This document shows positions 8,936 to 9,444 of a stretch of DNA of 9,444 bases, piece by piece. A program made the translations under genes and the position numbers. The first letter of the stretch is position 1, and each line of letters starts with the position of its first letter. The notes below the pieces were generated by a model. The model saw nothing but the letters and a program-made list of their open reading frames with translations, did no database searches and was not told the DNA's origin. This DNA is from a virus (lineage: Duplodnaviria; Heunggongvirae; Uroviricota; Caudoviricetes), in IMG/VR virus record IMGVR_UViG_2648501787_000016. One strand, given 5' to 3'.

Positions 8936-8970
8936 TACTGTAAATATAAACAGTGGTTATATTTACAGTA
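8936..8970. promoter_or_regulatory. LexA (SOS) box CTGTAAATATAAACAG at 8938-8953, embedded in a perfect 14-bp inverted repeat (8936-8949 / 8957-8970) overlapping candidate -10 elements
   Basis: Matches CTGT-N8-ACAG with an AT-rich centre, about 17/20 to the TACTGTATATATATACAGTA consensus. The 14-bp arms TACTGTAAATATAA are perfectly inverted around a 7-bp spacer. Located about 45 bp upstream of the next ORF. Confidence 0.7.
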
Positions 8971-8995
8971 TTGCTTTGGTGTCATAGGAGGAAAG

Positions 8996-9184
8996 ATGCA
9001 GGACTATTTTTTGGAGTCTTTGAAGCTCCAGCGCATTGATTTTTTTCTTAAGCTTGTAGCGGCTAGTGAGTGTAGTGATGAAGAGAAGGGGCTGGCTTTG
9101 CAGTGGGTTTCTGAACTAACAGATGAACTCATGGCAAAAATCAGAACCCACGAATACAACCGCTCAATGGATGTCATCAGTTGA
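8996..9184 (+). CDS. Small SOS-controlled protein, candidate Tum-like antirepressor
   Basis: 62-aa ORF with AGGAGG RBS 4-5 nt upstream, directly downstream of the LexA box. In phage 186 the LexA-controlled tum operon encodes the antirepressor. Assignment is by context only. Confidence 0.45.
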   Translation: MQDYFLESLKLQRIDFFLKLVAASECSDEEKGLALQWVSELTDELMAKIRTHEYNRSMDVIS

Positions 9185-9195
9185 GGTGACTTTTT

Positions 9196-9444
9196 ATGCG
9201 CATTGAAATAATGATCGATAAAGAGCAGAAGATTAGCCAGTCTACCCTGGACGCCCTTGAATCCGAGCTTTACCGCAATCTGCGTCCTCTGTATCCCAAA
9301 ACGGTAATTCGTATCCGCAAAGGTAGCTCTAACGGTGTGGAACTGACCGGATTGCAACTGGACGAAGAAAGTGTCACGAACGGTGCAATAGTGATCCACA
9401 CCCAACGCCTGAAATCAGATCCAGGGGGTAATCTGCTCTCCTGA
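9196..9444 (+). CDS. DinI-like protein
   Basis: 82-aa ORF, GAGGTG RBS, 11 bp after the preceding stop. N-terminal two-thirds resembles DinI ([29 protein letters not shown] vs DinI MRIEVTIAKTSPLPAGAIDALAGELSRRI). The C-terminal tail is atypical and the stop coincides with the window end. Confidence 0.65.

Follow-up and report, generated by a model that had tools for sequence, protein, structure and literature searches.

The stretch of DNA analyzed here (IMG/VR record IMGVR_UViG_2648501787_000016; 9444 bp, referred to as the window) constitutes the left arm of a Fels-2-like prophage of the P2/186 family. At its end, a LexA operator is followed by tumA, an open reading frame (ORF) of 62 codons, and by the 5' part of tumB, a DinI-like gene that is interrupted by IS100, an insertion sequence (IS). 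This region is made up as follows:

8913-8918, plus strand: putative -35 hexamer TTTACA of a p95-like SOS promoter, by analogy with p95 of phage 186
8935-8971, no strand: 37-bp palindrome with perfect 15-nt arms (8935-8949 / 8957-8971) and a 7-nt centre
8936-8941, plus strand: putative -10 hexamer TACTGT inside LexA box 1, with hexamer and position relative to the box as in 186 p95
8936-8955, plus strand: LexA box 1, TACTGTAAATATAAACAGTG, with the core CTGT-N8-ACAG at 8938-8953
8951-8970, plus strand: LexA box 2, CAGTGGTTATATTTACAGTA, with the core GTGG-N8-ACAG at 8953-8968; 15/20 of the consensus
8986-8991, plus strand: Shine-Dalgarno sequence AGGAGG for tumA, 4 nt before the ATG at 8996, read directly
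8996-9184, plus strand: tumA, 62 residues, predicted CI antirepressor with a two-helix hairpin fold; phrog_698, E 4e-38
9183-9189, plus strand: Shine-Dalgarno sequence GAGGTGA for tumB, which overlaps the stop codon of tumA; read directly
9196-9371, plus strand: 5' part of tumB, DinI-like, comprising codons 1-58 and 2 further nt; matches to Pfam DinI, 186 Tum and DuoHS TumB
9372-9444, plus strand: left end of IS100 (IS21 family), first 73 nt, supplying codons 59-82 and the stop of a chimeric ORF

We are highly confident that this region represents the SOS operon of a Fels-2-like prophage located next to rcdA in E. coli, that it serves an induction route from LexA via tumA to the CI repressor, and that its tumB has been cut by IS100. 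An earlier sequence-only reading had proposed that a module at this position induces a 186-like prophage under SOS (LexA) control. The unique LexA box, the homologies of TumA and TumB and the presence of a 186-type CI all bear this proposal out.

Operator and promoter

The pattern CTGT-N8-ACAG occurs only once in the 9444-bp window, at 8938-8953 (CTGTAAATATAAACAG), with 0.07 occurrences expected by shuffling. The corresponding 20-mer at 8936-8955 agrees with the consensus TACTGTATATATATACAGTA at 17 of 20 positions, and none of 200 shuffles came within 3 mismatches. The strong LexA box claimed for this site by the sequence-only reading is hence confirmed. The same reading had placed the box in a 14-bp perfect inverted repeat. 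This repeat is real, but its length was given too short, as the perfect arms comprise 15 nt and grow to 18 nt if one mismatch is allowed (8935-8952 / 8954-8971). The palindrome thereby creates a second LexA box, in line with the suspicion of a further site within the repeat. Boxes 1 and 2 overlap by a single base, G8953, so that CTGT to ACAG spans 31 bp.

The palindrome had been called unusually long. It corresponds instead to a standard colicin-type pair of overlapping SOS boxes, and judged from its sequence the window operator is such a double operator. When a plasmid collection was searched with positions 8925-8980, 844 records matched, mostly small mobilizable plasmids. In the three records that we opened, the match lies about 40 nt 5' of cea (colicin E1), of pst (pesticin) and of a cloacin-like tRNase bacteriocin gene, respectively, and the 33-nt operator core of the window is almost identical to those of all three genes. 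An alignment of three phage and three bacteriocin promoters showed CTGTA.ATA.AA.CAGTGGTT.TAT.TACAGTATT to be near-invariant, whereas the flanks differ. The window thus shares with cea of ColE1, pst of pPCP1 and the cloacin-like gene the arrangement CTGT-N9-CAGTGGTT-N-TAT-N-TACAGTA, in which the two boxes have one base in common. In contrast, the plasmid operators control a bacteriocin and not an antirepressor, and their flanking promoter sequences are unrelated. Colicin operators of the double-box kind are bound by two LexA dimers (PMC2994835). By analogy, two LexA dimers would be expected to occupy 8936-8970 in the lysogen. In our incomplete coverage of the literature, we found no paper describing a tum operator as a double box.

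A LexA box 38-65 nt 5' of a TumA-like start was present in 11 of 11 loci examined, which stem from P2-family phages of six genera and are otherwise unalignable in their flanking sequence. Single boxes are found in 186, PSP3, ENT90, two Yersinia phages, ESSI-2 and ESSI2_ev015. Fels-2, SopEPhi and the E. coli HS prophage DuoHS feature a double box in which box 2 is kept and changes are confined to the central N8. The DuoHS operator differs from that of the window in just two central box-2 bases (CA for TT), and that of Fels-2 by one palindrome mismatch. Scanning IMG/VR with a specific double-box pattern retrieved 54 contigs. Downstream sequence was readable in 52 of these, and all 52 encode TumA directly after the double operator, one of them with a frameshift.

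Box 1 may cover part of a promoter. The annotated 186 p95 promoter consists of a -35 hexamer TTCACA, an 18-nt spacer and a -10 hexamer TACTGT that forms the first half of the LexA box. In the window, TTTACA and TACTGT are separated by 17 nt, and from this analogy we infer a p95-like promoter that overlaps the LexA box. Further downstream, the position of the tumB Shine-Dalgarno sequence over the tumA stop codon suggests that translation of the two genes is coupled. A terminator-like hairpin considered at the tumA/tumB junction (9173-9190) was discarded, its stability being no greater than that of shuffled sequence (z -0.21).

TumA, CI and the probable induction route

In phage 186, Tum is a single fused protein of 146 residues with a DinI-like C-terminal part, as the sequence-only reading had it, and the 62-residue ORF of the window had been regarded as the counterpart of its N-terminal half. 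Profile comparisons support this assignment. With hhalign, four TumA-like sequences matched four 186-like N-termini with a probability of 96.8% (E 2.6e-10), and a 28-sequence profile matched the 186-type Tum N-terminus with one of 98.2% (E 2.9e-14) over 45 columns. Furthermore, tblastn searches started from either TumA or 186 Tum reach the 'tum protein' of Yersinia phage YenM_06.16-2. TumA and 186-type Tum have a motif in common that roughly reads L-(Q/E)-R-I-x-L-x2-(R/K)-L-x-A-x3-C-x3-(D/E)-(K/R)-x-x-A-L-x-W-(I/V/L)-x-E-L. That TumA is a remote homologue of the N-terminal 45 residues of 186 Tum is hence well supported at the level of sequence profiles. An AlphaFold2 model of TumA shows a two-helix hairpin with helices at residues 2-23 and 28-61 (predicted local distance difference test score, pLDDT, 88). 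A fold search with this model returned only generic helical hairpins, none at E <= 0.001; the TumA profile had no match among PDB sequences, and Pfam returned none for TumA. The TumA family comprises 66 representatives at 50% identity, nearly all of them stand-alone proteins of 50-100 residues. The position of tumA 3' of replication gene A is that of tum in 186 and of tumA in PSP3, and the PSP3 record describes its tumA as 'similar to 5' end 186 tum; UV induction of prophage'.

Functional evidence comes from DuoHS, which has the same rcdA attachment site and gene order as the window prophage. TumA of the window is identical at 61 of 62 positions to the product of the DuoHS gene 'tum' (ECHS_RS04495), which was deleted in the Phollow study (Nat Microbiol 2025; PMC12055606). 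The primers NHR24/NHR28 of that work join ATAGGAGGAAAG-ATG to TGA-GGTGACTTTTATGCGCATTG; against the window they show a single mismatch or an additional T. Their design shows a precise removal of the 62-residue ORF that leaves tumB (ECHS_RS04500) intact. After mitomycin C, neither the tum deletion nor, separately, a lexA(Ind-) strain showed lysis, viral foci or virions (PMC12055606). The test of the 62-residue protein's role in induction that the sequence-only reading had suggested has thus in effect been done on a near-identical orthologue, where the deletion abolishes induction. Dependence on tumA and on a cleavable LexA is established in such near-identical relatives, and by analogy it should apply to the window prophage. 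In PSP3, antirepressor activity is likewise assigned to the upstream gene (PMC3121763). CI binding is known only for 186 Tum, as cited in passages of PMC3121763 and PMC7708051.

The presumed target of TumA is the CI repressor of the window, for which precomputed Pfam hits comprise Phage_CI_repr and Phage_CI_C but no S24. This agrees with the earlier description of a repressor lacking an autocleavage motif. The protein shares 32% identity with 186 CI and hits PDB 2FJR with E 7e-27. Compared with DuoHS CI (L143:4701-5270), its identity is about 51% overall, with 78% in the N-terminal and 42% in the C-terminal domain. Given that TumA is 98% identical between the two prophages, this gradient may hint at a contact of TumA with the N-terminal DNA-binding domain. 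The sequences thus suggest that TumA contacts the conserved part of CI and can serve several immunity types.

Taken together, we propose the following course of induction. In the lysogen, two LexA dimers on the overlapping boxes (8936-8970) would cover the -10 and start region of the p95-like promoter and shut it tightly. Upon DNA damage, active RecA would prompt LexA self-cleavage, the double operator would be vacated and tumA transcribed. The 62-residue helical hairpin TumA might then bind the 186-type CI, which has no self-cleavage domain, and draw it off its operators. With CI sequestered, the early lytic promoter would be released. The second gene, tumB, would normally yield a 77-residue DinI-like protein thought to modulate RecA and the SOS signal. 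With IS100 after codon 58, TumB would be made without its C-terminal helix, and downstream genes would be cut off from the SOS promoter.

Induction of 186-like phages via LexA, Tum and CI is textbook knowledge. The split tumA/tumB form has been annotated and published, and the module is therefore already known. The window does carry two separate genes as proposed; however, this split is neither new nor peculiar to the window, as PSP3 (tumA/tumB) and Fels-2 (STM2728 / STM2726.1) are split too. Both were described as such (PMC3121763, Lemire 2011), and on tum that paper refers to Bunny 2002 and to Christie (personal communication). PSP3, the tumB of which is annotated as 'similar to dinI and 3' end of 186 tum', differs from the window by its single box and a much diverged TumA. 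The 186 p95-tum operon resembles the window in its LexA box over a TACTGT -10 hexamer, its location 3' of replication gene A and its target, a 186-type CI without self-cleavage. The N-terminal module of 186 Tum is homologous to TumA and its C-terminal DinI-like module to TumB. In contrast to the window, 186 combines both parts in one ORF behind a single LexA box, and the similarity between TumA and Tum emerges only with profiles. Small LexA-controlled antirepressors in one operon with a dinI homologue also occur in Gifsy and Fels-1 (GfoA, GftA; PMC3121763), although these lambdoid phages have the reversed gene order and other antirepressor and repressor families. What we add is little, namely the match of the double operator to the colicin type, the truncation of tumB by an IS and a LexA-like box conserved before int.

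In database records, tumA is labeled 'hypothetical protein', 'unknown function' or 'levan regulatory protein' (RefSeq, PHROGs, UniRef; phrog_698 itself carries 'unknown function'). The neighbouring DinI-like gene, or a fused Tum, is labeled 'RecA filament binding protein DinI'. With the DinI half named and tumA left without a functional name, annotation pipelines miss the actual induction gene.

Truncated tumB and alternative explanations

The second ORF starts with an ATG at 9196, 11 bp past the end of tumA. Its product scores 42.9 bits against Pfam DinI (PF06183; cut-off 24.2), with residues 14-58 covering profile positions 1-44 of 63. The tumB fragment is 39% identical to residues 71-126 of 186 Tum, which agrees with its proposed role as counterpart of the DinI-like C-terminal half. 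Residues 1-58 are identical to DuoHS TumB at 58 of 58 positions, and the segment 8845-9371 is 98% identical to Fels-2. At 9371 this similarity stops. From T9372 onward, 98 of 98 nt are identical to IS100 copies, where they are annotated under istA of 'IS21-like element IS100'. Of 5426 complete E. coli genomes, 2725 carry this IS100-end repeat, in <=26 copies each, and it is likewise found on plasmids, in several phage records and in thousands of E. coli replicons. In agreement with this, residues 59-82 of the chimeric ORF match phrog_21758 and not DinI. The 82-residue ORF, which had been read as DinI-like, is thus DinI-like only in residues 1-58; residues 59-82 are encoded by IS100, and the gene is not intact. 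It may serve as an example of a chimeric gene call made by an IS end.

Intact TumB, as in DuoHS, where no IS is present, has 77 residues, and Fels-2 TumB aligns with E. coli DinI (1GHH) over residues 1-75. The DinI C-terminal helix (about residues 58-77 of TumB; 58-81 of DinI) is absent from the 82-residue ORF, being replaced from codon 59. In DinI, this acidic C-terminal helix is the part that contacts RecA. Judged by its sequence, the ORF is a truncated tumB pseudogene rather than a working DinI family member, and truncated TumB is most likely inactive. The earlier comparison of 62 + 82 = 144 residues with the 146 of Tum does not hold up: because the ORF is a TumB fragment fused to IS100, the near-equality is a coincidence, and the intact pair is 62 + 77.

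None of the 5426 complete E. coli genomes has a match across the tumB-IS100 junction (none covers >=80% of positions 9150-9444), and the exact junction was not found in species-representative genomes either, which marks a recent, strain-specific insertion. A Fels-2-like record, Escherichia phage 500465-1 (L003, 2791-4884), has IS100 near its tum region at a different site. Its istA/istB annotation is fragmentary, and a short ORF called 'endonuclease' spans the IS end. IS100 insertions thus seem to recur in the tum part of P2-like prophages. As for the gene that follows, 186 orf97, located after tum, has no detectable relative after Fels-2 tumB. Fels-2 STM2726 (L001:3145-3876) and 186 orf97 (L002:5605-6336) both encode 243 residues, yet BLASTP finds no similarity between them. 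We hence do not propose a conserved third operon gene; the equal length is a coincidence.

A DinI partner does not appear to be required for the module. Five phages have a LexA box and a TumA-like ORF without it, and tumB is missing in 9 of the 54 IMG/VR double-operator contigs, where a terminator hairpin takes its place. These nine (L146, L156, L157, L164, L170, L180, L181, L185, L197) form a sub-lineage with the same double operator and a TumA identical at 60 of 62 positions. In them, the stop codon of tumA is followed by this terminator-like hairpin (GAAAAGGGGC...GCCCCTTTC), and L197 has a frameshift in tumA. In addition, the 186 record contains a GTG-initiated product from codon 71 that covers the DinI-like part. 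Because codon 71 lines up with the first residue of TumB, phage 186 with its fused gene seems to produce the DinI-like part separately as well. We conclude that tumB is probably dispensable for induction.

Several points weigh against our interpretation. TumA and 186 Tum could not be aligned by pairwise BLASTP, which leaves the homology profile-based. The left half of box 2 is poor, with GTGG in place of CTGT (two mismatches), and a consensus scan for a sigma-70 promoter of the region found none above thresholds. For the exact window sequence, LexA binding and expression are predicted only. The action of TumA on the window CI is extrapolated, because this CI is only about 51% identical to that of DuoHS. 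Moreover, the contig ends inside the IS and covers the prophage only up to that point.

With regard to the operator, box 1 might be the only LexA site, and the extended palindrome might be fortuitous, serve another protein, e.g., a phage regulator, or form a DNA or RNA hairpin. The two mismatches of box 2 fall in the critical CTGT, and a single box suffices in 186, PSP3 and five other phages. However, the identical GTGG-N8-ACAG second box with its one-base overlap recurs in three unrelated bacteriocin operators, for which occupancy by two LexA dimers is generally accepted (PMC2994835), and box 2 withstood change in Fels-2, SopEPhi and DuoHS outside its central N8. For an RNA hairpin, the predicted transcription start would lie inside the palindrome, so that the full hairpin would not be transcribed. 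We hence consider a lone box 1 improbable. It is still harder to reconcile with the data that the DinI-like protein is the real inducer, or that both halves are needed as in fused Tum, in which case the IS insertion would abolish SOS induction. Both parts do belong to one polypeptide in 186, and databases name the whole family after DinI. Nevertheless, deleting the 62-residue ORF alone with tumB kept abolishes DuoHS induction (PMC12055606), and in PSP3 the activity lies in the upstream gene (PMC3121763). The separate GTG-initiated product in the 186 record and the many phages with TumA only speak in the same direction, and we regard this explanation as very unlikely.

Alternatively, the module might be a dead remnant in which IS100, and possibly a rearrangement past the contig end, left a cryptic prophage, where LexA and tumA may fire without phage production. 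The truncated tumB, a contig that stops 25 nt past the window inside a repeated IS, and the recent, strain-specific nature of a lesion absent from 5426 complete E. coli and the species-representative genomes are compatible with this view, as is the frameshifted tumA of one IMG/VR relative, which shows that such modules decay. On the other hand, the ORFs from int to A in the window are all open and full length, and neither the operator nor the ribosome-binding site nor tumA is damaged. Given how common TumB-less relatives are, induction should survive the loss of tumB alone, and short-read assemblies usually break at an IS, so that such a contig end is no evidence of a deletion. A dead remnant is hence a serious but less probable outcome. 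That the tumB-IS100 junction itself is an assembly artefact seems extremely unlikely. It lies 98 nt from the contig end; however, the identical 82-residue chimeric product is on record in 3 contigs from 2 samples, and the break falls exactly at the IS terminus (TGT...), as expected of a true insertion.

Prophage context and the region upstream of int

The prophage contig belongs to the E. coli draft assembly GCA_049894145.1. Its host flank is ybjJ-rcdA with 99.7% identity, which places the integration site next to rcdA. Apart from the SOS region, the window contains the following genes:

1-1053, minus strand: int, the first gene in the window
1136-2812, minus strand: cargo gene between cI and int, 558 residues, with SNIPE, T5orf172 and MUG113 domains (phrog_1847, unknown function)
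2833-3429, minus strand: cI, 198 residues, 186-type immunity repressor and presumed TumA target, with matches to Pfam, 186 CI and PDB entries
between cI and replication gene A: early genes and a Dam methylase
6430-8844: replication gene A, adjoining the SOS region on its upstream side

Directly 5' of int, within 1058-1115 on the minus strand, lies a LexA-like box, AACTGTATATGTAACCAGTA, at 1084-1103 (16/20 of the consensus). It sits in the 17-nt spacer of a possible minus-strand promoter, TTGATT-N17-TTAAAT, which is followed by a GC hairpin and a U-run that abut the int ATG. Of 5426 complete E. coli genomes, 1100 keep this layout at ~80% identity, as does Klebsiella phage 4LV2017. The -35 and -10 hexamers of relatives read TTGACA and TAAAAT, respectively, and E. 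coli YJ1 features a perfect CTGT-N8-ACAG. The hairpin arms vary between relatives yet still pair. From the sequence, int may have a promoter under SOS control here, with its start inside a terminator that stops read-through from upstream.

We may speculate, with considerable doubt, that Fels-2-type phages adopted the double operator of bacteriocin plasmids, as opposed to the single box of 186 and PSP3, and thereby gained a tight, late and all-or-none induction. The LexA-like box at the int promoter could put excision under direct SOS control, and the present strain would be a natural tumB-null that separates antirepressor from DinI function. How firmly and how fully such very common E. coli and Klebsiella prophages are tied to the SOS response could be tested cheaply, starting from the colicin-like operator and from the LexA-like box at int.

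The position between cI and int varies in content. In E. coli HS, where DuoHS carries other cargo than the window, it holds short hypothetical ORFs, and in E. coli YJ1 an unrelated ORF. It looks like a variable cargo slot, possibly one for defence genes.

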